Assembly (NCBI GenBank): GCA_025774805.1
Contig: JALGZR010000019.1
Coordinates: 3,387-67,386, forward strand
Origin: a bacterium
GTDB taxonomy: Bacteria; ARS69
DNA length: 64,000 nt
Direction: 5' to 3'
Shown: one piece after another, positions 12,412-37,633 of the stretch
How the letters are laid out: each line of letters starts with the position of its first letter
Numbering within the stretch: position 1 is the first letter of the stretch
Translations under genes and position numbers: made by a program
Notes under the pieces: generated by a model
Told to the model about the DNA's origin: nothing
Seen by the model: only the letters and a program-made list of their open reading frames with translations
Database searches by the model: none

Positions 12412-12413
12412 GC

Positions 12414-16207: not shown

Positions 16208-16225
16208 TGTTACGGAAGGGAAACA
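16208..16225 (+). promoter_or_regulatory. Candidate enhancer (UAS) TGTTAC-N6-GAAACA
   Basis: Imperfect inverted repeat, 111 nt upstream of the -24 element at 16319. Related to the sites at 24450 and 14093. Confidence 0.45.
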
Positions 16226-16318: not shown

Positions 16319-16334
16319 TGGCATGAGTGTTGCT
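16319..16334 (+). promoter_or_regulatory. Sigma54-type promoter (-24/-12): TGGCAT-GAGTG-TTGCT
   Basis: GG and GC have the canonical 10-nt separation. 10 of 11 consensus positions match. About 125 nt upstream of the dsrA ATG. Confidence 0.7.
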
Positions 16335-16459
16335 TTGCAACAGTTTACGGATGTCTCGTCCGTGGGTCGGTCCGGGGGCGGAAACCATCCCTCCGCTCCG
16401 GCACGGGGTCGACCGCTCGGCGGTCGGAACGCTGGTCTGGGTGTCGAGAAGGAGTCGTA

Positions 16460-17656
16460 ATGAGCGAACAGAAGAAGGGGACGCCGCTCCTGGACGAGCT
16501 GGAAAAGGGTGCATGGCCCAGCTTCGTCAAGGAGATCAAGAAGGAAGCGAAGAGGCCGATGGTGCGGGATCTCCTGGGCGTCCTGGAGCGCTCCTACGAG
16601 GAGAAGATCGGCCACTGGAAGCACGGCGGACTGGTCGGCGTGATGGGATACGGAGGCGGCGTCATCGGCCGCTACTGCAATCTCGGGGAGGAGTTTCCCG
16701 AGGTCGCCGAATTCCACACGTTGCGTGTCAACCAGCCCGCCGCGTGGTTCTACACCTCCGACGCACTGCGCAAGCTGTGCGACGTCTGGGACGAGCACGG
16801 GTCGGGCCTGACCAACATGCACGGCTCGACGGGCGACATCATCTTCCTCGGCGCCAAGACGGAGGAACTGGAGCCGACGTTCTCCGGGCTGACGGAAGCC
16901 GGGTTCGACCTGGGTGGCTCCGGGTCGGACATGCGCACGCCGAGCTGCTGCGTCGGGCCGGCCCGCTGTGAATGGGCATGCTACGACACCCTCAACGCGT
17001 GCTACGACCTCACCCAGCAGTTCCAGGACGAGCTGCACCGACCGATGTTCCCCTACAAGTACAAGTTCAAGTTCGCCGGCTGTCCGAACGACTGCGTGGC
17101 TTCGGTGGCCCGGGCGGACATGTCCATCATCGGGACCTGGAAGGACGAGATCCAGATCGACCAGAAGGAAGTCCAGGCCTACGCCAAGAACGGCACGGAC
17201 ATCCAGAAGGAGATCTGTGACCTGTGTCCGACGAGGTGCATGGACTGGGACGGCCAGAAGCTCGAGATCGACGACGCCGAGTGCGTCAAGTGCATGCACT
17301 GCATCAACGTGATGTCCAAGGCGTTGAAGCCGGGCCAGGAACGTGGTGCCGCCATCCTCATCGGCGCGAAGGCACCGATCATCGGTGGGGCCCTGCTGTC
17401 GTCGGTGCTCGTCCCGTTCATCGAGATGAAGCCGCCGTACGAGGACCTGAAGGAGCTCACCGAGGCCATCTGGGACTTCTGGGGTGAGCATGGCAAGAAC
17501 CGCGAGCGCGTTGGGGAATTCATCCAGCGTGTGGGACTCGGGGCGTTTCTCGACGAGATCGGTCTGGAACCCGTGCCCGAGATGATCGCGCACCCGCGCA
17601 GCAATCCCTACATCTTCTTCGAGGAAGATCTCGAGGAAGAGGATGAGGACGAGTAG
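16460..17656 (+). CDS. dsrA: Dissimilatory sulfite reductase alpha subunit
   Basis: [53 protein letters not shown], plus ferredoxin insert CPTRC..CVKCMHC. Confidence 0.95.
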
Positions 17657-17694
17657 CTCCGGGCATGCGAGTAGCTCCGGGCAAGGAGGCTTCC

Positions 17695-18771
17695 ATGACG
17701 ACAACCGAACGTAAGACCGATATCGGACCCCCTCACTACGAGCAATTCCTCCCGCCCGTCATCAAGGCGAACTACGGGAGGTGGGCCCACCACGAGATCG
17801 TCGAGCCGGGCGTGATGGTGCACGTAGGGGAATCGGGGGACAAGCTGTACACGGTTCGCGCGGCGACGCCACGCCTGCTCGCCATCGCCACGATTCGTCT
17901 CTTCGCGGATTTGGCGGACAAATACTGCGACGGTCACCTGCGCTTCACCAGCCGCAACAACGTGGAGTTCTTGCTCACGGACAAGTCGAAGATCCCGGCC
18001 CTGAAAAAGGATCTGGAGGGAGAGGGCTACCTGGTCGGGGGCATCGGCAACGCCATCTCCAATATCGTCCACACCCAGGGTTGGGTTCACTGCCACTCCG
18101 CCGCGTCCGACGCGTCCGGCGTGGTGAAGTGCATCATGGACGAGCTGCACCCGCACTTTACCGGCATGGAGCTTCCGGGCAAGCTGCGCATCGCGTTCGC
18201 GTGCTGCCTGAACATGTGCGGAGCGGTCCACTGCTCCGATATCGCCGTGCTGGGCGTGCACACGAAGGTCCCGGTCATCGACCACGAGGAGCTGCCACGG
18301 GTCTGCGAGGTGCCGACCCTGGTCGCATCGTGCCCCACCGGTGCCATCCGGCCGGCCACGGTCGACGGACACAAGTCGGTGGAGATCGAGGATCCGCAGT
18401 GCATGTTCTGCGGCAACTGCTACACGGTGTGCCCCTCGGTGAAGATCAACAACGCGGACCATGACGGGATCTCGATCTGGGTCGGCGGGAAAGTCTCCAA
18501 CGCCCGCCGGGAGCCGATGTTTTCCAAACTGGCGATTCCCTATCTCCCCAACAACCCGCCGCGGTGGCCCGAGGTCGTCGAGGCGGTGAAGGGCCTCGTC
18601 GACGTGTGGGCGAAACACGCCCGCAAGCACGAGCGCATGGGCGAATGGATTGATCGGATCGGCTGGAAGCGGTTCTTCAAAATCGCCGGCATCCCGTTCA
18701 CCAAGTACCACATCGACGACTTCACGCATGCCGGTGAGACCTACAAGCGCTCGGTCCAGCTGAAGCACTAG
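17695..18771 (+). CDS. dsrB: Dissimilatory sulfite reductase beta subunit
   Basis: [70 protein letters not shown]. Confidence 0.95.
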
Positions 18772-18780
18772 GAGGCATGC

Positions 18781-19032
18781 ATGAGCCAGCCGACCGTTGA
18801 TGACGTCGCCACCGCGATGTTCGACCTGATCAAGGCGACGCACGGCAAGAAGAACCTGAAGCCGATGGACGTCACGAAGGCCATGATCGACCAGTTCGGC
18901 GAGGACGCCTGCGACAAGAAGCTCTGCAAGAAGGCCATTCGCCAGCTCATCGATTCCGGCCGCTGCATCTACAGCTATGTCGGCGGGAGTTACATCACGT
19001 TGCCGGCCGAGGAGGAATCCTCGGAGGGCTGA
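18781..19032 (+). CDS. dsrD: DsrD (small winged-helix-like protein of reductive dsr operons)
   Basis: 83 aa directly after dsrB. ..THGKKNLKPMDVTKAM..KKLCKKAIRQLIDSGRCIYSYVGGSYITLP. Confidence 0.85.
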   Translation: MSQPTVDDVATAMFDLIKATHGKKNLKPMDVTKAMIDQFGEDACDKKLCKKAIRQLIDSGRCIYSYVGGSYITLPAEEESSEG

Positions 19033-19103
19033 GGCGGCAGTCGGGGGGGGCCGGCCCGCGCCGGCCTCGATGCTTGGGATCGCGACCGACAAGGGATGAG
19101 GTC

Positions 19104-19541
19104 ATGGCGCACGTCCATGTGCCGGAGCGCATCGAGAAACTGGTGAGCACGCTCCGCCAATGGCAGAAGATCGAGCGGGAGGTGGTCGAATCGTGCGCGT
19201 CGATCATGGAGAAGACCAAAAACGCCCGGATCAGGCAGTTCATGGAGACCATCCGCAATGACTCCGCCCAGCATCATCGGCTGCAGCAGTTCCTCGTCGA
19301 CAGCCTGACAAAGGAACAGATCAAGCTGACGCCGGAGGAGCTGGGCGAGGTCTGGGACGAGATCACGGCGCACGACGAAGTCGAGCGGAAGACCATCGAG
19401 CTGGCGGAAGAGTGCAAGGAGGAGTGCAGGTTCTTCGTACAGCGTGCGCTCCTTGACTACCTGATCACGGACGAGGAGAAGCACGATCAGCTCCTCCAGT
19501 CTCTCGAGGAATTCAAGAAGAACATCTACCCGTACGGTTAG
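19104..19541 (+). CDS. Hypothetical all-helical protein (145 aa) inside the dsr operon
   Basis: Charged heptad-like sequence with one ExxH (DEEKH) and a CKEEC motif. No family recognised. Lies between dsrD and dsrL. Confidence 0.6.
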   Translation: MAHVHVPERIEKLVSTLRQWQKIEREVVESCASIMEKTKNARIRQFMETIRNDSAQHHRLQQFLVDSLTKEQIKLTPEELGEVWDEITAHDEVERKTIELAEECKEECRFFVQRALLDYLITDEEKHDQLLQSLEEFKKNIYPYG

Positions 19542-19575
19542 ACATCGCCGCGAGGAAACAGGGGAAGGGGCGCCG

Positions 19576-21306
19576 ATGAGCCTGCTGAACAAGAAGAAGA
19601 AGAAAGGCGGGGCCCGTCGCGCCCTGCGCGGTGGTGGGTCCTCCGGAACGCAGATCTCGTCGCTGCGGCCCCAGGCCGTGGAAAAGCTGCCGCCCTGCAC
19701 CGGGCACTGCCCCAGCGACAACGACATCCGCGGCTGGCTCACCGTGATCGCTCACCACGGGAAGTACGGTCTCTCTCTGGAAGAGGCCCGTGATCGGGCG
19801 TGGCGAATCGAGGTGGAGACGAATCCGTTCCCGGCGGTGATGGGGCGGGTCTGCCCGCACCCGTGCGAGACGAGCTGCAACCGTGTGCACAAGGACGGGG
19901 CCGTCGCGATCAACTCCGTGGAACGGTTCATCGGCGACTGGGGTATCGAGAGAGGGCTGAAGCTATCCGCCCTCGACGGCGATGCGGCCGGCGAGAAGAT
20001 CGCCGTCATCGGGGCGGGCCCCTCGGGTCTTTCCTGCGCCTATCAGCTGGCCCGCCGCGGCTACAAGGTCACCGTCTTCGATGCCTTCGAGAAACCGGGC
20101 GGCATGCTCCGCTACGGCATCCCGTCCTACCGCCTCCCTCGCGAGGTGCTGGACGCCGAGATCCAACGCATCCTCGACATGGGCGTCGAGTTGCGCAGCA
20201 ACACCTCTGTGGGAGAGCCCATCACCCTGGACGAGATCCGCAAGGAGTACGACGCCGTTTTCGTCGGCATCGGCGCGCACCAGGGCAAGACCATGGGGAT
20301 TCCGGGTGAGGACGGCTCGGGGGTCTACACCGGCACGGAGTTCCTCAACCTTGTCAACTCGGGCCGGGGAGCCGAGATCGGCGATCGGGTCATCGTGGTC
20401 GGCGGCGGCGACACCGCGATCGACGCGGCGCGCGTCTCCCTGCGTCTGAGCCCCGACGCGGCGGCCGTCTCGCGCCGCCTGGGCGCCGAGGTGACGATTC
20501 TCTACCGCCGCACGCGGGCCGAGATGCCGGCCATCGAGCGCGAGATCGAGGAGGCCCTCGAAGAGGGCATCAAGATCGAGTTCCTCGCGTCGCCGGCGAA
20601 GGTGATCCGGAGTGCCGACGGCACCGTGGAGAAGCTGGCCGTGCAGCGCTTCGAGCTGGGCGAGCCCGACGACTCGGGCCGGCGCCGGCCGGTTCCCATC
20701 GAGGGGGATGTCTTCGAGCTGGAGGCGGACACCCTGATCATGGCGGTGAGCCAGGCCCCCGACTGGAGCACCCTGGGCGGCGGCATCGAAACCAAGGGCA
20801 ACTGGCTGGAAGTGGACGAGTGGGGCCGCACGGGAATGGAGGGGGTCTGGTCGGGGGGTGACACCCTGACCCTCGGGCTGGCCACCATCTCCATCGGTCA
20901 GGGCCGCAGGGCGGCCGAGTGCATCCACGCGAAGCTCCGCGGGCACGAGCCGAAGTCCCCTCCCGATCGCCCGGCGATCGGCAAGGATCGTCTCAAGCTC
21001 GACTGGTACAAGGAGGCCCCGCGAGCGGAGCGGAAGATCCTCGCCCCGGAGGAGCGGCTGGCGCGTCCCATGGATGAAATGGACCTCGGTGTCACCGAAA
21101 CACAGGCGCAGGCGGAGACGGAGCGCTGCTTCAGTTGCGGTCTCTGCTTCGGCTGCGAGAACTGCTGGATGTACTGCCAGGTGAACTGCTTCAAGAAAAC
21201 CAAGGAACTCGAACTGGGGCACTTCTACGACATCGACCTGGGCACGTGTGACGGCTGCAAGAAGTGCGCTGAGGAGTGTCCCTGCGGTTTCCTCGATCTG
21301 TACTGA
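19576..21306 (+). CDS. dsrL: DsrL-type NAD(P)H oxidoreductase (GltD/NfnB-like with a C-terminal ferredoxin domain)
   Basis: N-terminal Cys clusters (CTGHCPSDN, RVCPHPCETSCNR). GAGPSGLSCAYQLARRGYKVTVFD. A second dinucleotide fold. C-terminal CFSCGLCFGCENC and CDGCKKCAEECPC. Confidence 0.8.
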   Translation: MSLLNKKKKKGGARRALRGGGSSGTQISSLRPQAVEKLPPCTGHCPSDNDIRGWLTVIAHHGKYGLSLEEARDRAWRIEVETNPFPAVMGRVCPHPCETSCNRVHKDGAVAINSVERFIGDWGIERGLKLSALDGDAAGEKIAVIGAGPSGLSCAYQLARRGYKVTVFDAFEKPGGMLRYGIPSYRLPREVLDAEIQRILDMGVELRSNTSVGEPITLDEIRKEYDAVFVGIGAHQGKTMGIPGEDGSGVYTGTEFLNLVNSGRGAEIGDRVIVVGGGDTAIDAARVSLRLSPDAAAVSRRLGAEVTILYRRTRAEMPAIEREIEEALEEGIKIEFLASPAKVIRSADGTVEKLAVQRFELGEPDDSGRRRPVPIEGDVFELEADTLIMAVSQAPDWSTLGGGIETKGNWLEVDEWGRTGMEGVWSGGDTLTLGLATISIGQGRRAAECIHAKLRGHEPKSPPDRPAIGKDRLKLDWYKEAPRAERKILAPEERLARPMDEMDLGVTETQAQAETERCFSCGLCFGCENCWMYCQVNCFKKTKELELGHFYDIDLGTCDGCKKCAEECPCGFLDLY

Positions 21307-21311
21307 GTCGC

Positions 21312-22802
21312 ATGGAGCTTCTCACCCCACGCCTGGTGGTTGGCGGTCTGGCGGGCGACAGCGGAAAGACGCTCGTGGCGCTCGGCCTGTCCCGCGCGTT
21401 CGTCAGCCGGGGCCTTAGTGTCGGCCCCTACAAGAAGGGGCCGGACTACATCGACGCGGCGTGGCTCGGGGCGGCGGCAGGAGCGGCGGGGCGGAATCTC
21501 GACACTTTCCTCATGGAGCGCTCCGCCATCGGGTCCGGCCTGTCGCGGTCCGGATCGGCCGACCTGCTGATGCTGGAAGGCAATCGCGGGCTGTTCGACG
21601 GCCTCGACTCCGAGGGGAGCCACTCCACCGCCGAGCTGGCCAAGCTCATCGGCGCCCCCGTGCTTCTGGTGCTCGACGTGACGAAGATGACCCGCACGGC
21701 GGCGGCCCTGGTGGTCGGCTGCAAAGCTCTGGATCCGCAAGTTCCCTTGGCGGGGGTGGTGCTGAACCGGGTGGGCACGGCACGCCAAGAAGGCGTTCTC
21801 CGAGAGGCCATCGCGGCGGCAGGCGGGCCGCCGGTCCTGGGCGCGATTCCCCGCCTGGAAGAAGAGTGGCTGCCCGGGCGCCATCTTGGCCTGGTCACGG
21901 CGGTCGAGCACCCACGACGTGAGGAAGCTTTGCAGGCAGTGGCGTCGGCGGTGGATCGCCACGTGGATCTCGAAGCCGTCCTCGACGTGGCGCGGTCCGC
22001 GACTCCGGTCCGTTTCCCCGATCCCGACCCGATTCCGGCGGGAGCGACCGTGAGAATCGGCGTCCTGCGGGACGAGGCGCTGAGCTTTTACTACCCGGAG
22101 AATCTGGAGGCGCTGCAAGCCTGCGGCGCCGAGCTGGTGACGGTGTCTCCGCTTCGCGATGATCATCTGCCGGACCTGGACGGTCTCTACTTCGGCGGCG
22201 GGTTTCCGGAGACTCATGTGAAGCGACTGGCTGCCAATGACTCGCTGCGTGAATCGGTGCGGGAAGCGGCAACGGCCGGAATGCCGATCTACGCCGAGTG
22301 TGGCGGACTGATGTATCTTGCCCGCGAACTCGTGGTGGACGGGGTCTCCCACTCCATGGCGGGCGTGCTCGATCTGGTCGTCGAGCAGACAGCCCGGCCT
22401 GTGGGGCACGGATACGTGGAGGCGGAGGTCGATGGGTCGAATCCGTTCTTCGAGTGCTCGACGCGCCTGCGCGGACACGAGTTCCATTACTCCCGAATCC
22501 TGTCCGGACATGACGCCAGCGCCTCGTGCCTCCGCCTGCAACGCGGTCATGGGATCGGGGGCGGACGCGACGGCCTCGCCGTGGGGAACGTTTGGGCCTC
22601 TTACCTGCACGTGCATGCCTTGGGGACGCCCTCATGGGCCGGGACGTTCACGGCCCTCGCACGCGCCTGGCGAACGAAGAGGGATCGGGGTAAGGGGCGC
22701 CGTCGCCCGACCTCGTTGAACGGGCGAGGACACGGGAAGCCCGAGGAACATGAAGACACGACTGGGCCAGAAGATCATGAGTTTGCTCCGGCAAGGGCGT
22801 GA
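21312..22802 (+). CDS. dsrN: DsrN (cobyrinic acid a,c-diamide synthase-like siroheme amidase)
   Basis: P-loop-like GLAGDSGKT, GPDYID, and a C-terminal glutamine amidotransferase part (YAECGGLMYL). The low-complexity tail overlaps the next gene by 53 nt. Confidence 0.8.
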   Translation: MELLTPRLVVGGLAGDSGKTLVALGLSRAFVSRGLSVGPYKKGPDYIDAAWLGAAAGAAGRNLDTFLMERSAIGSGLSRSGSADLLMLEGNRGLFDGLDSEGSHSTAELAKLIGAPVLLVLDVTKMTRTAAALVVGCKALDPQVPLAGVVLNRVGTARQEGVLREAIAAAGGPPVLGAIPRLEEEWLPGRHLGLVTAVEHPRREEALQAVASAVDRHVDLEAVLDVARSATPVRFPDPDPIPAGATVRIGVLRDEALSFYYPENLEALQACGAELVTVSPLRDDHLPDLDGLYFGGGFPETHVKRLAANDSLRESVREAATAGMPIYAECGGLMYLARELVVDGVSHSMAGVLDLVVEQTARPVGHGYVEAEVDGSNPFFECSTRLRGHEFHYSRILSGHDASASCLRLQRGHGIGGGRDGLAVGNVWASYLHVHALGTPSWAGTFTALARAWRTKRDRGKGRRRPTSLNGRGHGKPEEHEDTTGPEDHEFAPARA

Positions 22803-23274
22803 AGAGACGGTGGCCGGATTGGCCATCTCTGACCGGCGGGCCCTGCGTCCTCTCATGGGGAGGCTGTGGGATCCCGATCCGCGGATCCGGCGTCACGCGG
22901 CCGGCGCCATGGGTCGATCCGCGGAGGCACATCCGACGCTCGGGCTGGAAATGGTGCGCCGTCTGATGTGGGCCCTCAATGATGAGGCCGCGACCAACGG
23001 GGTGTTCGGCATCGCGGCCCTCGGGGAGATTGGCCATCGATGTCCGGAGATTCTGGAGCCGTTCATTTCCCCGTTGGTCTCCATGGCCTGGGACGAGGGG
23101 ATCCGGCTGGAGCTACTGAAGGCCCTCGGCCGCGTTGCGGAAGCGGATCCGCGACTGGTGAGGCGCGACCTCGCGCGTCTGGAGGCCTTCGTGGACGAGT
23201 CGCAAGAGGAAGAACGCGACGCGTTCCAGCGTCTGGTCGCGCTGGCCGGGGAGAGCAACCGTGAACGCAACTGA
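22750..23274 (+). CDS. HEAT/armadillo-like repeat protein
   Basis: Repeats of the type DPDPRIRRHAAGAMGR and ..GIAALGEIG..LLKALGRVA. Function unknown. Confidence 0.6.
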   Translation: MKTRLGQKIMSLLRQGREETVAGLAISDRRALRPLMGRLWDPDPRIRRHAAGAMGRSAEAHPTLGLEMVRRLMWALNDEAATNGVFGIAALGEIGHRCPEILEPFISPLVSMAWDEGIRLELLKALGRVAEADPRLVRRDLARLEAFVDESQEEERDAFQRLVALAGESNRERN

Positions 23275-23821
23275 AGGAGCGACCCACGGGATGGAACGCT
23301 ACCTGGAGCGGGTCCGGGAGAATCCGGAGTCCGCCGCCGCTCACTATAACCTCGGTCTGGCCTACACCCAGCGCGGACGGCCCGACCGCGCCGAGAAGCA
23401 CTACCGCAAGGCTCTCGAGCTCGAGCCCGACCTGGTGGAGGCCTGGGTCAACCTCGGTGGCGTGCTGTTGTTCAAGTGGGACTTCCCGGGCTGCGTCGCG
23501 GCCAACGAGGAGGCCCTGAAGCGCCAGGACGACTTGCTTCTGGCTCACTACAACATCGGCCAGGCCTGTCTCTACCTGGCCGACACGGAAGGAGTGCTGC
23601 GCAGCTTCCGCCGCGTCGTGGACCTGGACCCGGGGCACGCGGCGGGGCACTACTTTCTCGCCGTCGGGCTGCTGGCCGCCGGCCGCGTGCCCGAGGCCGT
23701 GGAGGAGATGGCTCGCGCCAAGGCCCTGGGCCACTCACCAGCCCCCGAGTTCCTGCGGGCCCTGAAGACCGCCGCCAAGGAACTGATTCGATCCACCGAC
23801 CCTAGCCCGGACTATTCATGA
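23261..23821 (+). CDS. Tetratricopeptide (TPR) repeat protein
   Basis: AHYNLGLAYTQRGRPDRAEKHYRKALELEPD and further TPR units. The start is GTG 23261 or ATG 23291. The last 19 nt lie inside the family-1 element. Confidence 0.75.
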   Translation: MNATEGATHGMERYLERVRENPESAAAHYNLGLAYTQRGRPDRAEKHYRKALELEPDLVEAWVNLGGVLLFKWDFPGCVAANEEALKRQDDLLLAHYNIGQACLYLADTEGVLRSFRRVVDLDPGHAAGHYFLAVGLLAAGRVPEAVEEMARAKALGHSPAPEFLRALKTAAKELIRSTDPSPDYS

Positions 23822-23983
23822 AGGATCTGCTGCGATCGCGGATACGCGCCACCGGACGGGCGTCCTCGGGGTTCGTACCCTGCGACGTATCGTTGAGATA
23901 CGCCTCGGGTCCAAACCCCTGCGGGTGCCCGTCCGGTGGGCGTCTCCGCAATCTCGCGACGATCTTCATGAATAGTCCGGGCT
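23803..23983. mobile_element. Family-1 palindromic miniature element, copy 2
   Basis: TAGCCCGGACTATTCATGAA ... TTCATGAATAGTCCGGGCT. The interior is collinear with copy 1 and has an extra internal inverted repeat (CCACCGGACGGGC / GCCCGTCCGGTGG). Confidence 0.6.
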
Positions 23984-24038
23984 GGCAATTCGACCGATCT
24001 CGGGGCGGAAGCTCCGGATAACAAAGAGGAGAGATGAG

Positions 24039-24356
24039 ATGCCGGAGTTCACACACGGAACGATCACGCTCACCGTCGACGAAGATGGATTCATGCAGGA
24101 GCCCGACAAGTGGAACGAAGAGGTTGCGGCTGCTCTTGCGACCACCGAGGCGGTCGAGGATCTCACCGATGACCACTGGAAGGTGGTCAACTACCTGCGC
24201 CAGTACTATCTCCAGTTCGGCGTCGCTCCGATGATCCGGAAGCTGACCAAGGAGACCGGGCTCAACCTGAAGAAGATCTACGAGCTGTTCCCGTCCGGGC
24301 CGGCCAAGGGCGCGTGCAAGGTGGCGGGGCTGCCCAAGCCGACCGGTTGTGTCTGA
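24039..24356 (+). CDS. dsrC: DsrC
   Basis: 105 aa. RBS AAGAGGAGAG. C-terminus ..GPAKGACKVAGLPKPTGCV carries both conserved cysteines. Confidence 0.95.
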   Translation: MPEFTHGTITLTVDEDGFMQEPDKWNEEVAAALATTEAVEDLTDDHWKVVNYLRQYYLQFGVAPMIRKLTKETGLNLKKIYELFPSGPAKGACKVAGLPKPTGCV

Positions 24357-24449
24357 GAAGCATCGCCCGCGAGCGACTTCGGGGGGGCGAACAGCCTGCC
24401 TGGCGGAATCGGAGCCGGGCAGGGGGCTCGCCCCCTCGCCGTATCCGGC

Positions 24450-24467
24450 TGTTACCGGGTCGTAACA
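24450..24467 (+). promoter_or_regulatory. Candidate enhancer (UAS): perfect palindrome TGTTAC-N6-GTAACA
   Basis: Perfect 6+6 inverted repeat, 119 nt upstream of the -24 element at 24569. Confidence 0.55.
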
Positions 24468-24568
24468 CTCGGAGGCTCCCGCGCCTCGAGCGTCCGGCAC
24501 TCGCCCACATCCGTCCGTGCAAGCCGTTGAATTTCAATAAATTGGATGTGCGCCACCGAGCCTGTGAT

Positions 24569-24584
24569 TGGCACGCCGGTTGCA
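24569..24584 (+). promoter_or_regulatory. Sigma54-type promoter (-24/-12): TGGCAC-GCCGG-TTGCA
   Basis: Exact match to TGGCAC-N5-TTGCA, 40 nt upstream of the dsrT ATG at 24624. Confidence 0.8.
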
Positions 24585-24623
24585 AAAACTGAACTCCGCG
24601 AAGGACCATCGGAGGAGCCAGTG

Positions 24624-25190
24624 ATGAACCGGCTCGACGGTCTGCAGGAGAGGCGGGCGGCGGTCATCGACCGCTGGAAGGCGCTGACGCTCGCGGTCTA
24701 TCCGGAGCGTGCCGCGGAGTTCATCGTCCGGGAGCCCGACCGCTTCCGGAATCCGGTGGGCCACCTGGTGGGCGAGAACCTGGAGATTCTCTACGACGGC
24801 CTCCTCGCAGATGCGCCGGCGGAGACGATGCGGGCAGCGTTGGACGGCATCGTGCGCATCCGTGCGGTGCAGGACCTCTCCCCCTCAGCCGCGGTCGGGT
24901 TCGTCTTCCTGCTGAAGCAGGCCGTTTGCGAAGAACTGAGCGGGGGTGACGGCGATCCGGCCGCCGAGATCGAGCCCGCCGGGCTCTTCGATCGCATCGA
25001 CCGGCTCGCGCTGCAGGCCTTCGACCTGTTCATGCGGTGCCGGGAGCAAATCTACGACCTTCGCGTGCGCGAAATTCGCGGCCGGGCGCCGAGGCCGCAC
25101 ACGTCACTCCGGGCGCGCGAGATCGAGGGGACGGAACGGTCCGGAAGCGAGTGGGCCGGTTCCGAGACCAAAGGAGAGGGAGCGGGATGA
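24624..25190 (+). CDS. dsrT: DsrT-like protein (RsbRD N-terminal-domain type)
   Basis: RBS GGAGGAG. ..DRFRNPVGH..IVRIRAVQDLSPSAAVGFVFLLKQ.., as I remember it from proteins preceding dsrM. Its stop overlaps the dsrM start (ATGA). Confidence 0.65.
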   Translation: MNRLDGLQERRAAVIDRWKALTLAVYPERAAEFIVREPDRFRNPVGHLVGENLEILYDGLLADAPAETMRAALDGIVRIRAVQDLSPSAAVGFVFLLKQAVCEELSGGDGDPAAEIEPAGLFDRIDRLALQAFDLFMRCREQIYDLRVREIRGRAPRPHTSLRAREIEGTERSGSEWAGSETKGEGAG

Positions 25191-26179
25191 GGGCCATGAT
25201 CGCCTTGCTCGCCTTGGCCGTGCTGCTCGGTGTGGTCTGGGCGGGAGTCGGCCTGGCTGGCCAGCGGACCTTGTTCGGAATCGTCATTCCCTACGTGGCC
25301 ATTGCCGTGTTCCTGGTCGGCATGGTCTACCGGGTCCTGCTCTGGGCCGGGGCGCCCGTACCGTTCCGCATTCCGACGGTGTGCGGCCAGCAGCGCTCGC
25401 TGCCCTGGATGCGGCGGGACCCGCTGGAGAGCCCGAGCGGGACACTCGAGGCCGTCGGGCGGATGGCCGGCGAGATCCTGCTGTTCCGCTCGCTGTTCCG
25501 GAATACCCGCGTGGGGCTGAAGGGATCGGACCGCGTCGTCTACCACTCGGAGAAGCTCCTCTGGCTCGCCGCCCTGGCCTTCCACTGGTCCTTCCTCATC
25601 ATCTTCGTGCGGCACCTGCGTCTCTTCCTCGATCCCACGCCGAGTTTCGTCCATCTCATCGAGGTCGTGGACGGCTTCTTCCAGCTCAGTGTGCCGGTCT
25701 TCTTCCTCTCCGGCGGCCTGATCCTGGTCGCTCTGCTCTACTTGCTCGGGCGGCGCCTCCTGGATGCGCAGGTGCGCTACATCTCACTGCCGACGGACTA
25801 CTTCGCGCTGTTCCTCCTGATCGGTGTCGTGGTCTCGGGCATCTTCATGCGCTACATCACCAAGGTCGATCTGCTCAAGGTGAAGGAGCTCTCCGTCGGC
25901 TTGACGACCTTCCGGCCGGCCCTGCCGGAGGGCATCGGCCTGCCGTTCTACATTCACCTCTTCCTCGTCAGTCTCCTCTTCATCTACTTCCCCTTCAGCA
26001 AGCTCGTCCACATGGGGGGAGTGTTTCTGAGCCCGACGAGGAATCTGGCGAACAACAACCGCAATCGGCGCCACATCAACCCCTGGAACCCCGAAGTGGA
26101 GGTACACACGTACGCCCAGTGGGAAGAGGAGTTCCGAGACAAGCTCGAGGCCTCCGGCATACCGTTGGATGGGAAGTGA
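25187..26179 (+). CDS. dsrM: DsrM (heme-b membrane subunit)
   Basis: NarI/HdrE-like helices. Position directly before dsrK. Confidence 0.9.
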   Translation: MRAMIALLALAVLLGVVWAGVGLAGQRTLFGIVIPYVAIAVFLVGMVYRVLLWAGAPVPFRIPTVCGQQRSLPWMRRDPLESPSGTLEAVGRMAGEILLFRSLFRNTRVGLKGSDRVVYHSEKLLWLAALAFHWSFLIIFVRHLRLFLDPTPSFVHLIEVVDGFFQLSVPVFFLSGGLILVALLYLLGRRLLDAQVRYISLPTDYFALFLLIGVVVSGIFMRYITKVDLLKVKELSVGLTTFRPALPEGIGLPFYIHLFLVSLLFIYFPFSKLVHMGGVFLSPTRNLANNNRNRRHINPWNPEVEVHTYAQWEEEFRDKLEASGIPLDGK

Positions 26180-26185
26180 TCGGTC

Positions 26186-27802
26186 ATGGAGAAGTCGCCG
26201 CAGGAACTGCTTCAGCTTGACTACCACCCACCCCGGCGGGATTGGATGGATCCCGCCGTCGACTTCGAGGCCCGACGCGGGAGCTGGAGCTATCCCGGCG
26301 TCGGGAAGAACCTCAAGTACATGGGGTACGCCAACCCCCGGGAGTGGTCTCCCACCGATGACGATTGGAAGCTGCCCGACGGATGGCAGAAGATCCTCCA
26401 CGAAGGTCTGAAGGAACGCCTCGGCAAGTACCGTTCCCTGCGGGTCTTCCTCGATTCCTGCGTGCGATGCGGCGCCTGCGCCGACAAGTGCCACTTCTAC
26501 ATCGGATCGGGGGATCCGAAGAACATGCCCGTCCTGCGGGCCGAGCTGCTGCGCTCCGTCTACCGCAACGACTTCACGCTGGCGGGACGCATCCTCGGCC
26601 GGATCGCCGGCGTCCGCAAGCTCACCCCCGACATTCTCAAGGAGTGGTACTACTACTTTTTCCAGTGCACGGAGTGCCGCCGTTGCTCGGTGTTCTGCCC
26701 CTACGGCATCGACACGGCGGAGATCACCATGTTCGCCCGGGAGCTTCTCAACCTCGTGGGACTGAACATCAACTGGGTCGTCGAGCCCGTGGCCAACTGC
26801 CATCGCACGGGCAATCACCTGAACATTCCGCCGCACACCTTCAAGGACAACATCGAGTTTATCTGCGAGGAGTTGGAGGACGCCACCGGGATCAAACTGA
26901 CGCCCCCCATTAATCGCAAGGGCGCGGAGATTCTGTTCGTCGTCCCCTCGGCCGACTACTTCGCCGACCCCGGCATCTTCACCTTCATGGGCTACCTGCT
27001 GCTGTTCGAGCACATCGGACTGGACTACACGTTGAGCGCCTACGCCTCCGAGGGCGGCAATTTCGGCCTGTTCACCTCCCACGATACCATCAAGCGGCTC
27101 AACTACAAGATCTACGCCGAGGCTAAACGGCTCGGAGTGAAGTGGATCCTGGGCGGCGAGTGCGGTCACATGTGGAGGGTCCTCCACCAGTACATGGACA
27201 CCATGAACGGTCCGGCGGACTTCCTGGAGCGTCCGGTCTCGCCGATCACCGGCACGCGTTTCGAGAATGCGGCCTCGACGCGGATGGTCCACATCTGCGA
27301 GTTCACGTCCGACCTGATTCACCAGGGCAAGCTCAAGCTCGATCCCTCGCGCAACGACCGCTGGCGGGTGACGTTCCACGACTCCTGCAACCCGTCCCGG
27401 GCGATGGGCCTCCTGGAAGAGCCGCGCTACGTGCTGCGGAACGTCTGCAACTACTTCCACGAAATGCCCGACAACACCATCCGGGAGCAGACCTTTTGCT
27501 GTGGTGGGGGCGCAGGGCTGGGAAACGACGAGAACATGGAGATGCGCATGCGTGGCGGGCTGCCGCGAGCCAACGCGGTCAAGTTCGTGCAGGAGAAGCA
27601 CGGCGTGAACCTGCTCACGTGTGTCTGCGCCATCGACCGGGCGACCCTACCGCCCCTGATGGAGTACTGGGTCCCCGGGGTCGACGTGTCGGGCGTCCAC
27701 GAGCTGGTGGGCAACGCCCTGGTGATGGAGGGGGAGAACGACCGCAAGACGGACCTGCGTGGAAACGGCGCGAACGACGAGGAAGGAGGTCCCGATGCGT
27801 GA
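26186..27802 (+). CDS. dsrK: DsrK (HdrD-like catalytic iron-sulfur subunit)
   Basis: CVRCGACADKCH, CTECRRCSVFCP, HDSCN and FCCGGGAGLG motifs. Confidence 0.92.
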   Translation: MEKSPQELLQLDYHPPRRDWMDPAVDFEARRGSWSYPGVGKNLKYMGYANPREWSPTDDDWKLPDGWQKILHEGLKERLGKYRSLRVFLDSCVRCGACADKCHFYIGSGDPKNMPVLRAELLRSVYRNDFTLAGRILGRIAGVRKLTPDILKEWYYYFFQCTECRRCSVFCPYGIDTAEITMFARELLNLVGLNINWVVEPVANCHRTGNHLNIPPHTFKDNIEFICEELEDATGIKLTPPINRKGAEILFVVPSADYFADPGIFTFMGYLLLFEHIGLDYTLSAYASEGGNFGLFTSHDTIKRLNYKIYAEAKRLGVKWILGGECGHMWRVLHQYMDTMNGPADFLERPVSPITGTRFENAASTRMVHICEFTSDLIHQGKLKLDPSRNDRWRVTFHDSCNPSRAMGLLEEPRYVLRNVCNYFHEMPDNTIREQTFCCGGGAGLGNDENMEMRMRGGLPRANAVKFVQEKHGVNLLTCVCAIDRATLPPLMEYWVPGVDVSGVHELVGNALVMEGENDRKTDLRGNGANDEEGGPDA

Positions 27803-28187
27803 TCGAGGCGCGATCTTCGCGGGGCTCGTCTTCTTCCTCGCTCTGGTCACCTATCCCATCTGGTCGGGCCTGGCGGCCGGCGAGGGCGGGGGGCCGCCGG
27901 AGCTGGTCCTCCCCCCCGAAGGGGAGAAGTGCGTGGAGGAAACGTCCGCCATGCGCACCGACCACATGCAGCTCTTGATGGAGTGGCGGGACGAGGTCGT
28001 ACGCGACAACGACCGGATCTACACCACCGCGGACGGACGCCGTTTCTACAAGAGCCTCTCCGGGACCTGCATGAGCTGCCACGCCGACAAGGAGCAGTTC
28101 TGCGACCGGTGCCACAACTACGTCGCGGTGACCCCCTACTGCTGGGACTGCCACGTCGAGCCCCCGGGAGGGCAGCGATGGGATTGA
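27795..28187 (+). CDS. dsrJ: DsrJ (triheme cytochrome c)
   Basis: RBS GGAAGGAGG. Signal anchor. CMSCH, CDRCH and CWDCH. Conserved EKCVEET cysteine. Confidence 0.9.
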   Translation: MRDRGAIFAGLVFFLALVTYPIWSGLAAGEGGGPPELVLPPEGEKCVEETSAMRTDHMQLLMEWRDEVVRDNDRIYTTADGRRFYKSLSGTCMSCHADKEQFCDRCHNYVAVTPYCWDCHVEPPGGQRWD

Positions 28188-28951
28188 AGAGGAGAGCGTT
28201 CTGCAGGCTCGCCGGACTCGGCACGCTGGGGATGGCCGGAGTTCCGGCCGGCCGCGCACTCGGGGAGAAACCGCGGTCCTCGCCGGAGGACGTGAGAGAG
28301 CCGATCCTGGGCAAGCGGTGGGCCATGGTCGTCGATCTGCAGGCGTGCCGCAAGAAGGAGGGCTGCCGGGACTGCATCGCCGCGTGCCACGAGGCCCACA
28401 ACGTTCCCGACCTCGGCCATGAGAAGCACGAGGTGAAGTGGATCTGGAAGGAGCCGTACGCGGAGGCGTTCCCCAACCAGCACCACGACCACATGCCGCA
28501 CCACATGCAGCACGAGGCGACGCTGGTCTTCTGCAACCACTGCGACGAGCCGCCCTGCACGAGGGTCTGCCCCACGCAGGCCACCTGGAAGCGCGAGGAC
28601 GGCATCGTGATGATGGACTGGCACCGGTGCATCGGTTGCCGCTACTGCATCGTGGCCTGCCCATACGGTTCGCGCAGCTTCAACTGGCGGGATCCCCGAC
28701 CCTACATCGAGGAGATCCGCCCCGATTTCCCCACCCGGAGCCGCGGCGTCGTGGAGAAGTGCACGTTCTGCGACGAACGCCTGTCCAAGGGGCGACTTCC
28801 GGCGTGCGTGGAGGCCTGTACGACCCGCTGCCTCGTCTTCGGCGACCTGGAGAACCCGGACTCGGAAGTCCGAAAGCTCTTGGCCACGCGTCACGCCATT
28901 CGTCGGAAGCCCGGCCTGGGCACCGGGCCCGAAGTCTACTACCTGGTATGA
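28178..28951 (+). CDS. dsrO: DsrO (Tat-exported ferredoxin-like subunit)
   Basis: MGLKRRAFCRLAG twin-arginine signal. CNHCDEPPCTRVCP and CIGCRYCIVACP. Confidence 0.9.
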   Translation: MGLKRRAFCRLAGLGTLGMAGVPAGRALGEKPRSSPEDVREPILGKRWAMVVDLQACRKKEGCRDCIAACHEAHNVPDLGHEKHEVKWIWKEPYAEAFPNQHHDHMPHHMQHEATLVFCNHCDEPPCTRVCPTQATWKREDGIVMMDWHRCIGCRYCIVACPYGSRSFNWRDPRPYIEEIRPDFPTRSRGVVEKCTFCDERLSKGRLPACVEACTTRCLVFGDLENPDSEVRKLLATRHAIRRKPGLGTGPEVYYLV

Positions 28952-28958
28952 GGTGACT

Positions 28959-30116
28959 ATGCTGGAGAAGGCGTTCTCGGGAGGTCGCAGATACTGGGGC
29001 TGGATCGGCTTCCTGCTGCTGGTGGTGGCCGCCGGCGGCTACTCCTACCTGCACCAGCTCGGTCACGGCCTGGGGATCACCGGCTTGAGCCGGGATGTGA
29101 CCTGGGGCTTCTACATCGCACAATTCACCTTTCTCGTCGGCGTGGCGGCCTCCGCGGTGATGGTGGTCTTGCCCTACTACCTGCATGACTTCAAGGCCTT
29201 CGGACGGGTCGCGATCCTCGGAGAGCAACTGGCCATCGGGTCGGTGATCATGTGCGTGCTGTTCATCACCGTCGATCTCGGGCAGCCGGGCCGCATGGTC
29301 AACATGCTGCGCCACCCGTCGCCGCGCTCGATCCTGTTCTGGGACATGATCGTTCTCAACGGCTACCTGCTGCTCAACGTGATCATCTCGCGCGTGAGCA
29401 TGAACGCGGAGCGCAACCGCACGCCGCCCCCCGGGTGGATCAGGCCGGTGATCCTGCTCTCGATCCCCTGGGCGCTCAGCATCCACACCGTCACGGCGTT
29501 CATCTACTCCGGACTCGCCGCACGGCCCTTCTGGATGACGGCGATCCTCGCCCCGCGATTCCTGGCCTCGGCCTTCTCGTCCGGCCCGGCACTGCTGATT
29601 CTCCTCTGCCTGGTGCTCAGGCGATTCACGCGCTTCGACGCCGGCTGGGACGCGATCCAACAGCTGGCGGTGATCGTGACCTACGCCGTCCTGACCAACG
29701 TCTTCTTCGTTCTGACGGAGTTCTTCACGGCCTTCTACAGCGCCATTCCCGAGCACGTGGAGCACTTCCGCTACCTCTACCTGGGATTGGATGGGCACCA
29801 CGAGCTGGTGGCCTGGATGTGGCTTTCGGCCGCTCTGATCATGGTCGCCGCGGTGATCCTGGTGAACCCGGGAACGCGGCGGGCGAAGACGCCGTTGACG
29901 TTCGCCTGCATTGCAGTGGTCGCCTCGATCTGGATCGAGAAGGGCCTCGGCATGATCGTGACCGGTTTCGTGCCGTCTCCCCTGGGCAAGGTGACGAGCT
30001 ACGCTCCGACGATCCCCGAGGTGTTGATCACGCTGGGCATCTACGCGGGCGGTGCGCTGGTCGTCACCATGCTCTACAGAATCACCCTATCCCTCCGGGG
30101 TGAGTTGCGAACCTGA
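28959..30116 (+). CDS. dsrP: DsrP (NrfD-type membrane subunit)
   Basis: RBS GAGGTGA before ATG 28959 (GTG 28953 is an alternative). About 10 TM helices. Confidence 0.9.
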   Translation: MLEKAFSGGRRYWGWIGFLLLVVAAGGYSYLHQLGHGLGITGLSRDVTWGFYIAQFTFLVGVAASAVMVVLPYYLHDFKAFGRVAILGEQLAIGSVIMCVLFITVDLGQPGRMVNMLRHPSPRSILFWDMIVLNGYLLLNVIISRVSMNAERNRTPPPGWIRPVILLSIPWALSIHTVTAFIYSGLAARPFWMTAILAPRFLASAFSSGPALLILLCLVLRRFTRFDAGWDAIQQLAVIVTYAVLTNVFFVLTEFFTAFYSAIPEHVEHFRYLYLGLDGHHELVAWMWLSAALIMVAAVILVNPGTRRAKTPLTFACIAVVASIWIEKGLGMIVTGFVPSPLGKVTSYAPTIPEVLITLGIYAGGALVVTMLYRITLSLRGELRT

Positions 30117-30127
30117 CCGAGGTGCCC

Positions 30128-31801
30128 ATGACCGAGCGTCGCCACACAGTCCTGATCGTGGGCGCCTCTGCCGCCGGACTGCGCTGCGCCTGCCGCCTGG
30201 CACGCTTGCGGCCGGACTGGCGGATCCGGGTCCTGGAGGCGCGGGCGACCTTCTCCTACGCGGCCTGCGGCCTGCCCTACGTGCTCTCCGGCGACATCGC
30301 CGACCCCCAGGCCCTGCGGCGCACCGTCTACGGAGTGATCCGGGACACCGCGTACTTCGCGGGACACAAGGGCGTGGAGGTCCTCGCCGGCCACCGCGTC
30401 CTTGCCATCGACACGCAGCGGCGTGCCTTACGAGCCGAGGGACCGGATGGCGAGTGCGAGCTGGGCTGGGACGAGCTGGTGCTGGCCACCGGCGCCCGGC
30501 CCCGCCGCCTGCAGGAGCAGCCGGATCATCCACGGGTCGTCTCGTTTCACCGCTGGGATGATCTCGAACCGCTGCGCCGGGGGCTCGCAGAGGGCCGGAT
30601 CGACCGCGTCGCGATCGTGGGCGCCGGCCCGGTGGGCTGCGAGCTGGCCGAAGCGTTTCACAGTCTGTGGGGAGCGGAGGTGGTTCTGCTCGAGGAAGCG
30701 AGTGCCCCGCTCCCCGGAATCCTCGACCCGGACGTGGCAACGTGTGTCGCGGGACACCTTCGAGCGAACGGCGTGGAGCTAGGGCTCGAATCCCCGGCTC
30801 GGCGCATTGAGGTCGTCGGCGAGCGAGTGGCTCTCACCGTGGCAGACGGAACGGTCGAGGCCGACGTGGCCGTCGTGGCCGTGGGTGTGCAGCCCGCCGT
30901 CGAGCTGGCCCGCGAGGCCGGGATCAAGCTGGGGACCGGCGGAGCCATCGCCGTCGACGAGCGTCTGGCCACATCGGCGCCCCACGTGTGGGCCGCCGGT
31001 GACTGCGCCGAGGTGCACCACGCTGTTCTCGGTGAGCCCGTGTCTCTCCCGCTGGGCTCGCTGGCGAACCGGCAGGGCCGCACCCTGGCCGAAATCCTCG
31101 CGGGCCGCCCGGACCGCTTCCCCCCGGTGGCCGGAGCCGTTGCTGTCAAGGTCTTCGACTGCAACGTGGCGGCGACGGGTTGCACCCTGTCCCGGGCGCG
31201 GGAACGCGGGCTGCAAGGGCGTGCCGCCTGGATCACCGTCGAGGATCGGGCGCACTACTGGCCCGAGGCCGAGCTGATGCACCTCAAACTGGTCTACGAG
31301 ACCGGCTCGCGCAGGGTGCTGGGAGTCCAGGCCGTGGGGAAGGGTGACGCCGTCAAGCGCGTGGACGTGGCCACCCAGCACATCGCGGCCGGGGGTACCC
31401 TCGACGATCTCGCTCACGTGGAGCACTCCTACGCCCCGCCTTACGCTCCCGCCATGGATCCGCTGGCCGTCGCCGCACAGGTGGCCCAGAACCAGGAGGA
31501 CGGCATCGAGGCCGCGGCGCCCGACGAGGCTCTCGACGACGGCACGCGCATTCTCGACGTGCGGCTGGCGGAGGAGTCGGCGGCCCGCCCCGCCTTCCCA
31601 GACCGGGCGATGCACGTCGCTCTGGGCGAGCTGTCGAGCCGGCTCGACGAGATTGACCCTGCGACGGGGCTCGTCGTCTGCGAGCGGGGGACACGATCGG
31701 CCGAGGCGGTCCGCCTGCTGCGGCGGCAGGGCATTCGCGCGCGCTATCTCGGCGGCGGACTTCGCTGGCGCGCTCTGGTGGAAGAGAGTGGGGCCTCATG
31801 A
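30128..31801 (+). CDS. CoA-disulfide reductase-family flavoprotein fused to a C-terminal rhodanese domain (Npsr-like NAD(P)H persulfide/polysulfide reductase)
   Basis: VLIVGASAAGLRCA. Redox Cys in SYAACGLPY. A second dinucleotide fold, VAIVGAGPVGCELA. WAAGDCAE. Rhodanese loop VVCERGTRS. Confidence 0.8.
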   Translation: MTERRHTVLIVGASAAGLRCACRLARLRPDWRIRVLEARATFSYAACGLPYVLSGDIADPQALRRTVYGVIRDTAYFAGHKGVEVLAGHRVLAIDTQRRALRAEGPDGECELGWDELVLATGARPRRLQEQPDHPRVVSFHRWDDLEPLRRGLAEGRIDRVAIVGAGPVGCELAEAFHSLWGAEVVLLEEASAPLPGILDPDVATCVAGHLRANGVELGLESPARRIEVVGERVALTVADGTVEADVAVVAVGVQPAVELAREAGIKLGTGGAIAVDERLATSAPHVWAAGDCAEVHHAVLGEPVSLPLGSLANRQGRTLAEILAGRPDRFPPVAGAVAVKVFDCNVAATGCTLSRARERGLQGRAAWITVEDRAHYWPEAELMHLKLVYETGSRRVLGVQAVGKGDAVKRVDVATQHIAAGGTLDDLAHVEHSYAPPYAPAMDPLAVAAQVAQNQEDGIEAAAPDEALDDGTRILDVRLAEESAARPAFPDRAMHVALGELSSRLDEIDPATGLVVCERGTRSAEAVRLLRRQGIRARYLGGGLRWRALVEESGAS

Positions 31802-31859
31802 ACCGAAATGTCACGCGAAGAGGATGGACGTTGCGCGAGGAATGCGGGGAGGCGAACTG

Positions 31860-34566: not shown

Positions 34567-34567
34567 G

Positions 34568-37583: not shown

Positions 37584-37633
37584 GCCCATGGGGCGGCCGC
37601 AGGAAACAGAAGGGAAACGAGAGGAGGTGAGTC

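Follow-up and report, generated by a model that had tools for sequence, protein, structure and literature searches.

Which regulator switches on the dsr genes of dissimilatory sulfur metabolism in the bacterium whose DNA is shown above? To our knowledge, very little has been learned about the activation of dsr genes outside a few model Desulfovibrio, and we know of nothing on how clusters with DsrL and DsrD are regulated in the uncultured lineages of soil and sediment, Acidobacteriota among them. The 64,000-nucleotide stretch analyzed here as a whole (the window; contig JALGZR010000019.1) contains a dsr cluster, and the region in question, positions 24450-24584, lies in the spacer between dsrC and dsrT. 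From comparisons at the sequence level we consider it rather probable that this region forms an enhancer-dependent sigma-54 promoter, PdsrT, which would be served by an activator encoded in the same cluster and coupled to an oxyanion sensor.

Two elements stand at the ends of the region (Table 1). The upstream one is a perfect palindrome, the candidate upstream activator site (UAS), which starts 119 nt ahead of the -24 element and has its centre at about -136 from the predicted start of transcription; sites of this kind typically lie 80-150 nt upstream. The downstream one matches the sigma-54 consensus TGGCAC-N5-TTGCW exactly, with the GG of the -24 part and the GC of the -12 part spaced by exactly 10 nt. 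The initial annotation had called both, as an exact consensus 40 nt before dsrT and a perfect 6+6 palindrome 119 nt upstream; the coordinates and letters of the former proved correct, and the latter holds to the base. A ribosome-binding site (RBS), GGAGGA, follows at 24611, and the dsrT ATG lies at 24624, 40 nt past the -24/-12 motif. Transcription from sigma-54 promoters usually starts about 12 nt after the GC of the -12 element. By this distance the dsrT transcript is predicted to start near 24595, with a leader of about 30 nt. Neither a sigma-70 promoter nor a terminator was detected in 24300-24700 and 37380-37700, no terminator was predicted between dsrC and dsrT, and the search of the window against Rfam gave no match either.

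How often would such motifs be met by chance in the window? Matches to TGGCAC-N5-TTGCW with one mismatch at most number three in 64 kb against 0.78 expected, and all of them (14201, 16319 and 24569) are on the plus strand, intergenic and ahead of genes. The palindrome with up to two mismatches is present twice (0.16 expected), its second copy lying 111 nt ahead of the sigma-54 site at 16319. Pairs of palindrome and -24/-12 element separated by 40-220 nt were counted three times, whereas 200 dinucleotide shuffles gave 0.14 on average and in no case three.

The next level of comparison was the spacer in relatives. DsrT has many metagenomic relatives, the closest with 74-76% identity, and in the closest species-representative genomes (labelled Rokubacteria, Acidobacteriota and others) it is only about 50% identical. 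Exact-protein look-ups recovered nine close-relative loci with DNA (L161-L169), whose gene order is that of the window as far as the binding protein and kinase described below. In the alignment of dsrC-dsrT spacers (nine sequences, seven distinct) the mean column identity was 61%, and amid diverged sequence there were two invariant islands, GTTAC-N6-GTAAC and GGCA(C/T)-N5-(T)TTGC, with 105-107 nt from UAS to -24 element in the relatives. The 6 nt inside the palindrome varied freely. Because the half-sites and the GGCA and TTGC blocks are invariant and the 6-nt spacer is free, the islands look like the site of a dimeric DNA-binding protein followed by a sigma-54 promoter. We think it very likely that 24450-24584 holds functional sigma-54 and activator elements. 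The proposal of a sigma-54 promoter made in the initial annotation is strengthened by GGCA-N7-TTGC being invariant in seven distinct relatives, as the UAS is in the same alignment of orthologous regions, and by an activator with a GAFTGA motif in the cluster.

The predicted dsrT promoter appears to be restricted to the clade of the window rather than universal, because most of 80 species-representative loci lack such an element before dsrT. The -24/-12 scan of these loci gave matches only in L001, L002, L016 and L005, plus a weak two-mismatch match in L051, and the matches of L001, L002 and L016 are those of a different system. In L005, labelled Acidobacteriota, a perfect TGGCACAAGTGTTGCT is located at about 9734, 267 nt upstream of dsrT, and this locus has no UAS pair there.

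Is dsrT the only target? In the window the same combination of elements stands before dsrA and before the gene of a YeiH-family transporter. At dsrA, four lineages (the window, L163, L165 and L169) share TGTTAC-N6-(G/T)(A/T)AAC together with TGGCAY-N5-TTGCT; the left half is invariant and the right half varies. The dsrA-type pair also occurs in L081 and, placed before dsrA, in L015 (Acidobacteriota), L066 (Thermoanaerobaculia) and the metagenomic locus L132. At yeiH, the orthologous locus L174 has TGTTAC-N6-GGAACG and a perfect TGGCAC-N5-TTGCA (TGGCACGACCGTTGCA) at the aligned positions, and a similar pair precedes yeiH-like genes in L009, L019, L026, L038, L056 and L162.

The fetched loci, 2.0 Mb in all, were scanned for UAS/-24/-12 pairs, with genes mapped by tblastn. 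The scan found the pair before dsrT in L081, L082, L084, L087, L088 and L161-L169, and before dsrL-dsrA and yeiH-like genes in loci of the NC10/Methylomirabilales type (L009, L019, L037, L038, L056 and L125). Of the high-quality pairs, 45 have the sense of the dsr genes and 2 the opposite one, and both antisense pairs, in L171, lie ahead of real divergent genes. The consensus derived from 41 distinct sites is YGTTAC-N6-GTAACR, and its distance to the -24 element is mostly 105-112 nt. A regulon of three operons, already suggested in the initial annotation, is well supported as a prediction by the conservation of the pair before dsrA and yeiH and its recurrence in distant lineages; its products would be the YeiH transporter, sulfite reductase and accessory proteins, and the membrane complex DsrMKJOP.

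Several loci show peculiar arrangements of these sites. In loci of the NC10 type (e.g., L037, 2968-3094) two copies of GTTAC-N6-GTAAC exactly 31 nt apart are followed by TGGCAA-N5-TTGCT upstream of dsrL-dsrA, and in L009, L019, L038 and L056 the tandem arrangement is also found upstream of the yeiH-like gene. In L174 (4747-9773) a UAS and sigma-54 pair lies ahead of an operon encoding HdrD-like, Fer4 and NrfD-cytochrome c proteins, and in L170 (13334-14690) and L171 (13918-16858, minus strand) pairs lie ahead of proteins of 387-392 aa without a Pfam family; these are possible additional members of the regulon. In the close relative L162 (421-2100) a different gene of the YeiH family, 32% identical and abutting dsrA, takes the place of the yeiH ortholog, the 70-aa open reading frame (ORF) and the spacer with the dsrA promoter; it has its own perfect CGTTAC-N6-GTAACA and TGGCAC-N5-TTGCA. 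It appears that the transporter was swapped here and the regulatory module was kept. The predicted leader of dsrA (16335-16459) contains blocks conserved in five lineages, CCCTCCGCTCCG, GGAAC, and GGTGTC before the RBS. A conserved structure of this leader was considered and found unsupported, as the covariation term of the consensus fold is positive.

Which protein could act at these sites? The 3′ end of the dsrT operon carries three genes that the initial annotation had not mentioned, for a periplasmic binding protein, a histidine kinase and a response regulator. The regulator is the only sigma-54 activator of the window, and its GAFTGA loop is intact. The kinase gene starts 1 nt after the stop of the binding-protein gene, and its own stop overlaps the start of the activator gene. 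All genes of the operon abut or overlap on one strand, and their order is kept in L161-L165 and L170-L172, so that dsrT through the activator gene presumably form a single transcript. None of the three regulator proteins is covered by a specific NCBIfam model; the best scores of the activator are with AtoC, NtrC and ZraR, below every equivalog cut-off (for AtoC, 477 against 714). The signal peptide of the binding protein contains a lipobox-like LLAC, and the nearest relatives of the protein in PDB are PtxB (phosphite, 8e-30), ArrX (2e-19) and AioX (2.5e-9).

Orthologs of the activator are abundant, with 71-89% identity. The three distant ones sampled (77%, 74% and 72%, the last labelled Thermoanaerobaculales) all stand at the end of the order dsrTMKJOP-flavoprotein-sirohaem synthase-(binding protein)-kinase-activator, and closer orthologs are apparently placed likewise in the clusters of L162, L163 and L165, giving six sampled at 72-89% identity. 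The recognition helix of the Fis type, GISRKTLWEK, is invariant in 36 orthologs and in this parallels the invariant half-sites. Rokubacteria-type loci (L001, L002 and L016) provide a natural control: they have a different activator, with the helix LQISERNLYRKL, and a different palindrome, CTGAC-N5-GTCAG.

The arrangement of the three genes resembles that of a well-studied system of arsenite oxidation. AioX is the periplasmic arsenite sensor of the three-component system AioX-AioS-AioR (PMC5908839), which controls the sigma-54 promoter of aioBA in Rhizobium/Pseudorhizobium sp. NT-26 and Agrobacterium tumefaciens (PMC5908839, PMC5335332, PMC7533571). AioR binds a conserved sequence upstream of the RpoN promoter (PMC5908839, PMC7533571), with the documented consensus GTT-N10-AAC and the footprint GTTCGGATTTCCGAAC (PMC5335332). 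For comparison we used a genuine aio system, that of the NT-26 plasmid NZ_FO082821 (locus L175). Its aioB promoter shows GTTCGAGAATGCGAAC (GTTCG-N6-CGAAC), an A-rich tract and then TGGCACAACGATTGCA (TGGCAC-N5-TTGCA).

The likeness concerns genes, sites and helix. In both systems a binding protein of the PhnD fold is followed by a histidine kinase with a HAMP domain and by an activator with receiver (REC), AAA+ and helix-turn-helix (HTH) domains, the genes overlapping or abutting. Both have TGGCAC-N5-TTGCA targets with a 16-bp GTT-N10-AAC palindrome upstream and an A-rich tract between, both have nearly the same recognition helix (11 of 12 residues, LGISRKTLWEKM in the window and LGISRTTLWEKM in AioR), and both control, the window system by prediction, a respiratory oxyanion pathway. 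Together with the invariant half-sites and the free 6-nt spacer, this AioR-like geometry and helix match favour the earlier proposal that the palindrome serves as an enhancer. In contrast, identity is low (37% between activator and AioR, 28% between binding protein and AioX, 26% between kinase and AioS), the inner bases of the half-sites differ (GTTAC in the window, GTTCG in NT-26), and the distance from UAS to -24 element is 105-118 nt here and 67 nt in NT-26. The regulator genes of the window are located at the 3′ end of the target operon, whereas those of aio lie upstream; the targets are dsr and not aio genes, and the binding protein is missing from some dsr clusters. Orthology to AioX, AioS and AioR was not found, the binding protein being closer to PtxB (8e-30) than to AioX (2.5e-9). 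A tblastn search of the binding protein against plasmids returned only PtxB/PhnD transporters, and one with the HTH of the activator alone gave no match. The trio of the window would thus work like AioXSR without being its ortholog.

What could the trio perceive? The pocket of AioX is formed by Tyr88, Cys106, Tyr131, Ser161, Ser163, His192 and Asp210, with arsenite bonded to Cys106; its side with Tyr88, Tyr131, Ser161, Ser163 and His192 is identical in PhnD (PMC5908839). Six dsr-linked binding proteins retain the residues at the positions of Tyr88, Ser161, Ser163 and His192, and they have Asp or Gly where AioX has Cys106 and an invariant Arg (Arg197) where it has Asp210. This arginine is clade-specific, being absent from the aligned AioX, PhnD and PtxB. 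In the window protein the Tyr131 position is occupied by His. Without the cysteine that binds arsenite, and with no more than 37% identity between the activator and AioR, the trio would be a different sensor, for an oxyanion other than arsenite. The signal peptide, the adjacent kinase gene, to which the gene is translationally coupled, and the lack of ABC transporter genes nearby suggest that the binding protein is a sensor rather than a transporter component. We tentatively propose that the trio (33652-37425) is a dedicated periplasmic sensor of sulfite or thiosulfate, a sulfur counterpart of AioXSR, in which Arg197 would determine specificity for a fully ionised sulfur oxyanion. The dsr-linked binding proteins also share C82, C103, C173, C194 (beside Arg197) and C298, which AioX, PhnD and PtxB do not have at the aligned positions. 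These cysteines possibly form disulfides, or a redox or sulfite-reactive site.

The proposed sequence of events is as follows. RNA polymerase with sigma-54 would form a closed complex on TGGCAC-N5-TTGCA at 24569-24584. A dimer or oligomer of the regulator would bind the palindrome GTTAC-N6-GTAAC, about 105-118 nt upstream, looping of the DNA over the AT-rich tract would bring activator and polymerase together, and ATP hydrolysis by the activator would open the promoter near 24595. The same type of site and promoter at yeiH (14093/14201) and dsrA (16208/16319) would make a three-unit regulon. The kinase probably phosphorylates the activator; its stimulus would be a periplasmic oxyanion caught by the binding protein. 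Because the regulator genes end the dsrT operon, the circuit would reinforce itself. The sequences of this scheme, their conservation, the joint location of the genes and the family assignments are observed, and binding, sigma-54 dependence, phosphotransfer, ligand and autoregulation are inferred.

Between the two elements lies the AT-rich tract. At classical enhancer-dependent promoters looping is sometimes assisted by integration host factor (IHF), and the initial annotation had seen here both the only AT-rich stretch of the region and a resemblance to an IHF site, with one mismatch. The former holds: 24520-24549 is the sole marked dip of the dsrC-dsrT spacer (33% GC, in a window of 65.7% GC). 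The IHF match is real as well, with two adjacent one-mismatch matches to WATCAANNNNTTR at 24520-24544, midway between UAS and promoter, but nine such matches in the window against 4.6 expected are close to chance and not statistically notable. At the promoters of dsrA and yeiH a match with one mismatch or fewer is lacking, and the relatives keep in part the AT-rich dip and a loose TTT-C-A-N4-TTG pattern, most of them with two or more mismatches to the IHF consensus. Pfam annotation of the main ORFs of the window revealed no nucleoid-protein gene. In favour of a genuine IHF site whose bending is needed for activation one can count the matches, the position of the tract, the persistence of the loose pattern and the A-rich tract at the corresponding position of the AioR-dependent NT-26 promoter; however, looping across about 105-118 nt may need no bending protein. 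We find such a role for IHF doubtful. An intrinsic or protein-assisted bend is plausible here, and the assignment to IHF specifically is weak.

How else could these elements be explained? The motifs could be chance matches in a GC-rich spacer, and dsrT could be co-transcribed with dsrC from an upstream promoter; in favour of this, no terminator was predicted between the two genes, and one sigma-54-like match with up to one mismatch is expected about 0.8 times per window. This is hardly credible in view of three pairs where 0.14 are expected and the strand asymmetry of 45 to 2, and it is effectively refuted by conservation, since the islands are invariant amid divergence in seven distinct relatives which are not near-identical strains (DsrT identity 62-74%). 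The palindrome could also act as RNA: with the GC-rich inverted repeats that follow dsrC it might serve to terminate the dsrA...dsrC transcript, to mark it for processing or to stabilise it as a hairpin. A very stable fold is indeed predicted for 24357-24449 (-58 kcal/mol, z = -3.9), and the value for the palindrome plus flanks is -11.6 kcal/mol (z = -2.25). But both halves of the stem are invariant, without compensatory changes, the pairing of the flanks is not conserved, no U-tract terminator was found, and in the alignment fold of the upstream hairpins the covariation term is positive, that is unfavourable. The same palindrome also stands before yeiH and dsrA, always about 105-135 nt ahead of a -24/-12 element. 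For lack of covariation the RNA-hairpin reading of the palindrome was rejected, and we regard this explanation as very improbable.

A sigma-54 promoter whose palindrome is bound by another enhancer-binding protein or by a repressor encoded elsewhere, with the neighbouring two-component system controlling something else, deserves more attention. The NC10-type loci speak for it, as they have the motif pair, with tandem sites before dsrL-dsrA and yeiH, and no activator ortholog within 10 kb of dsrT; the binder there could be a different protein. The activator and AioR are also only 37% identical, which is ordinary for the family, and the shared helix could reflect common ancestry without shared specificity. 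On the other side, in all contexts sampled an activator ortholog closes the dsr cluster on its 3′ side, an invariant recognition helix goes with invariant half-sites, both site geometry and helix match AioR, clusters with a different activator have a different palindrome, and a site at about -125 to -136 suits an enhancer and not a repressor operator. We judge another binder unlikely, and the cluster-encoded activator is probably the protein that binds the palindrome. Besides these arguments from the NC10-type loci and from AioR, some further points count against PdsrT and its proposed activator. Because no terminator is predicted between dsrC and dsrT, transcription may also read through from the dsrA promoter, with PdsrT adding to it. 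Both dsrA and yeiH have an imperfect right half-site. Two clusters, L170 and L172, lack the binding protein, which is thus not indispensable to the system, and the sCache domain of the kinase may sense as well. No rpoN is present in the 64-kb window, and its presence in the genome would have to be deduced from the activator gene. As the signal we would cautiously name sulfite or a near relative of it among the sulfur oxyanions, a guess drawn from the regulated genes, the fold family and the pocket substitutions.

Apart from the palindrome, the GC-rich hairpin region right after dsrC (24357-24449) has its main stem at about 24381-24437 and no U-tract. In relatives, too, dsrC is followed by GC-rich inverted repeats, and covariation supports no common structure. 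Alongside the UAS, this hairpin may be a transcript-end or stabilising element of dsrC mRNA.

Known systems of the same mechanism differ in their details. NtrB-NtrC at glnAp2, AtoS-AtoC and ZraS-ZraR also use a phosphorylated REC-AAA+-HTH activator, palindromes about 100-140 nt upstream and remodelling of the sigma-54 holoenzyme. The window system differs from NtrC, AtoC and ZraR in the DNA site, the sensor module (an sCache kinase plus a separate binding protein) and the predicted regulon, dissimilatory sulfur metabolism. As a binder of the palindrome the redox-sensing repressor Rex was set aside on a single ground, its site, TTGTGAA-N4-TTCACAA, which looks unrelated to GTTAC-N6-GTAAC. In Desulfovibrio dsrABD and dsrMKJOP are among the predicted Rex targets, and the RpoN-dependent promoters newly listed for D. 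alaskensis G20 include none described as that of a dsr gene (PMC4045070). Rex there is a repressor, whereas an activator with sigma-54 is proposed here, and both lineage and site differ. Closest in layout is the Rokubacteria-type dsrT promoter, with a -24/-12 element TGGTATGTTTCTTGCT about 45 nt before dsrT, a palindrome about 106 nt upstream and an adjoining activator gene; in contrast to the window, this activator is a receiver-less protein of 310 aa with its own helix and palindrome. Three copies of CTGAC-N5-GTCAG are conserved in these loci (L001 9160-10010, L002 9140-10010, L016 9180-10010). A small receiver-only gene lies in between with its own sigma-54 promoter, and the TGGTATGTTTCTTGCT promoter before dsrT is the second one.

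Table 1. Features of the window: predicted control sites, dsr genes, regulator genes and repeats
Feature	Position	Strand	Description
UAS, yeiH promoter	14093-14110	.	CGTTAC-N6-GAAATG, right half degenerate
Sigma-54 -24/-12 element before the YeiH-family transporter gene	14201-14216	+	TGGCACGAGCGCTGCA
UAS, dsrA promoter	16208-16225	.	TGTTAC-N6-GAAACA, right half imperfect
Sigma-54 -24/-12 element before dsrA-B-D...dsrC	16319-16334	+	TGGCATGAGTGTTGCT; predicted leader about 115 nt
UAS, dsrT promoter	24450-24467	.	TGTTACCGGGTCGTAACA, perfect palindrome TGTTAC-N6-GTAACA (N6 = CGGGTC), read from the sequence
AT-rich tract between UAS and promoter	24531-24545	.	ATTTCAATAAATTGG; weak candidate for a bend or IHF/HU-type site
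Sigma-54 -24/-12 element, dsrT operon	24569-24584	+	TGGCACGCCGGTTGCA, TGGCAC-N5-TTGCA (N5 = GCCGG), exact consensus match
DsrM/DsrK-like pair	11443-14024	+	Pfam, NCBIfam
YeiH-family transporter	14297-15973	+	Pfam, NCBIfam
DsrA to DsrC	16460-24356	+	DsrA, DsrB, DsrD-sized ORF, 155-aa protein, DsrL-like flavoprotein, CobB/CobQ-type amidase (DsrN), HEAT and TPR proteins, DsrC
DsrT to sirohaem-synthase-like protein	24624-33662	+	DsrT (RsbRD_N), M, K, J, O, P, CoA-disulfide-reductase-like flavoprotein, sirohaem-synthase-like protein
Presumed dsrT operon	24624-37425	+	dsrT-M-K-J-O-P, flavoprotein, sirohaem synthase, binding protein, kinase, activator
Periplasmic binding protein, candidate signal receptor	33652-34566	+	PhnD/PtxB/AioX fold; PF12974, E = 4e-55
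Membrane sensor histidine kinase	34568-36046	+	Transmembrane segment (TM), sCache_3_2, TM, HAMP, HisKA, HATPase; Pfam and translation
Sigma-54 enhancer-binding response regulator, NtrC/AtoC type	36043-37425	+	REC, AAA+ with GAFTGA, Fis-type HTH; Sigma54_activat 1e-69
Copies of 21-nt repeat	37520-37584; 41054-41074; 41215-41235 (-); 46350-46370; 57187-57207		

The identities of the dsr genes and of the transporter given in the initial annotation agree with the Pfam and NCBIfam results (Table 1). Genes of signal transduction are dense around the sulfur cluster (4976-10155 and 37634-39642). Two similar pairs (4976-7458 and 37634-39642) each consist of a stand-alone receiver followed by a HAMP histidine kinase (Mcp40H-20-like sensor), and at 7466-8290, on the minus strand, a receiver is fused to a glycine-cleavage-H-like domain beside a PAS kinase.

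A dispersed 21-nt repeat, CTAGCCTGCATTTCTCACCAG, has six copies with three mismatches or fewer in the window, where none is expected. Two of them form a hairpin of 25 nt, 96% complementary, directly after the activator gene. A second inverted pair about 160 nt apart is found at 41054/41215, and single copies lie at the 3′ ends of genes. The repeat looks like an intergenic element similar to repetitive extragenic palindromes or miniature inverted-repeat transposable elements, or like a terminator hairpin.

Full-text searches gave no paper that connects these dsr clusters with sigma-54, an enhancer-binding protein or a two-component system. Regulators of this kind go unmentioned in the main papers on the clusters, and a search for sulfite-sensing AioX-like systems found nothing relevant. 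The mechanism itself is a textbook one and the architecture matches AioXSR; no earlier account of the dsr-linked system came to light. The analysis gives a concrete circuit that can be tested, with the site YGTTAC-N6-GTAACR, a candidate regulator, a kinase, a periplasmic receptor and three to five target operons, and the site can be used for prediction of the regulon in metagenome-assembled genomes. The receptor could be titrated with sulfur oxyanions, and the promoters could report the signal that triggers sulfite respiration. The system would extend the design of binding protein, kinase and sigma-54 activator from arsenic to sulfur respiration, and it offers a natural example of a recognition helix and a palindrome changing together across three systems. 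If the tentative assignment of the trio to sulfite or thiosulfate is true, then, by way of sigma-54 and the GTTAC-N6-GTAAC enhancers, it would be the master on-switch of dissimilatory sulfite reduction (yeiH, dsrABD-L-N-C and dsrT-MKJOP) in a widespread group of bacteria that are uncultured and Acidobacteriota-like or related to these. How sulfite respiration is regulated in uncultured lineages becomes directly testable.

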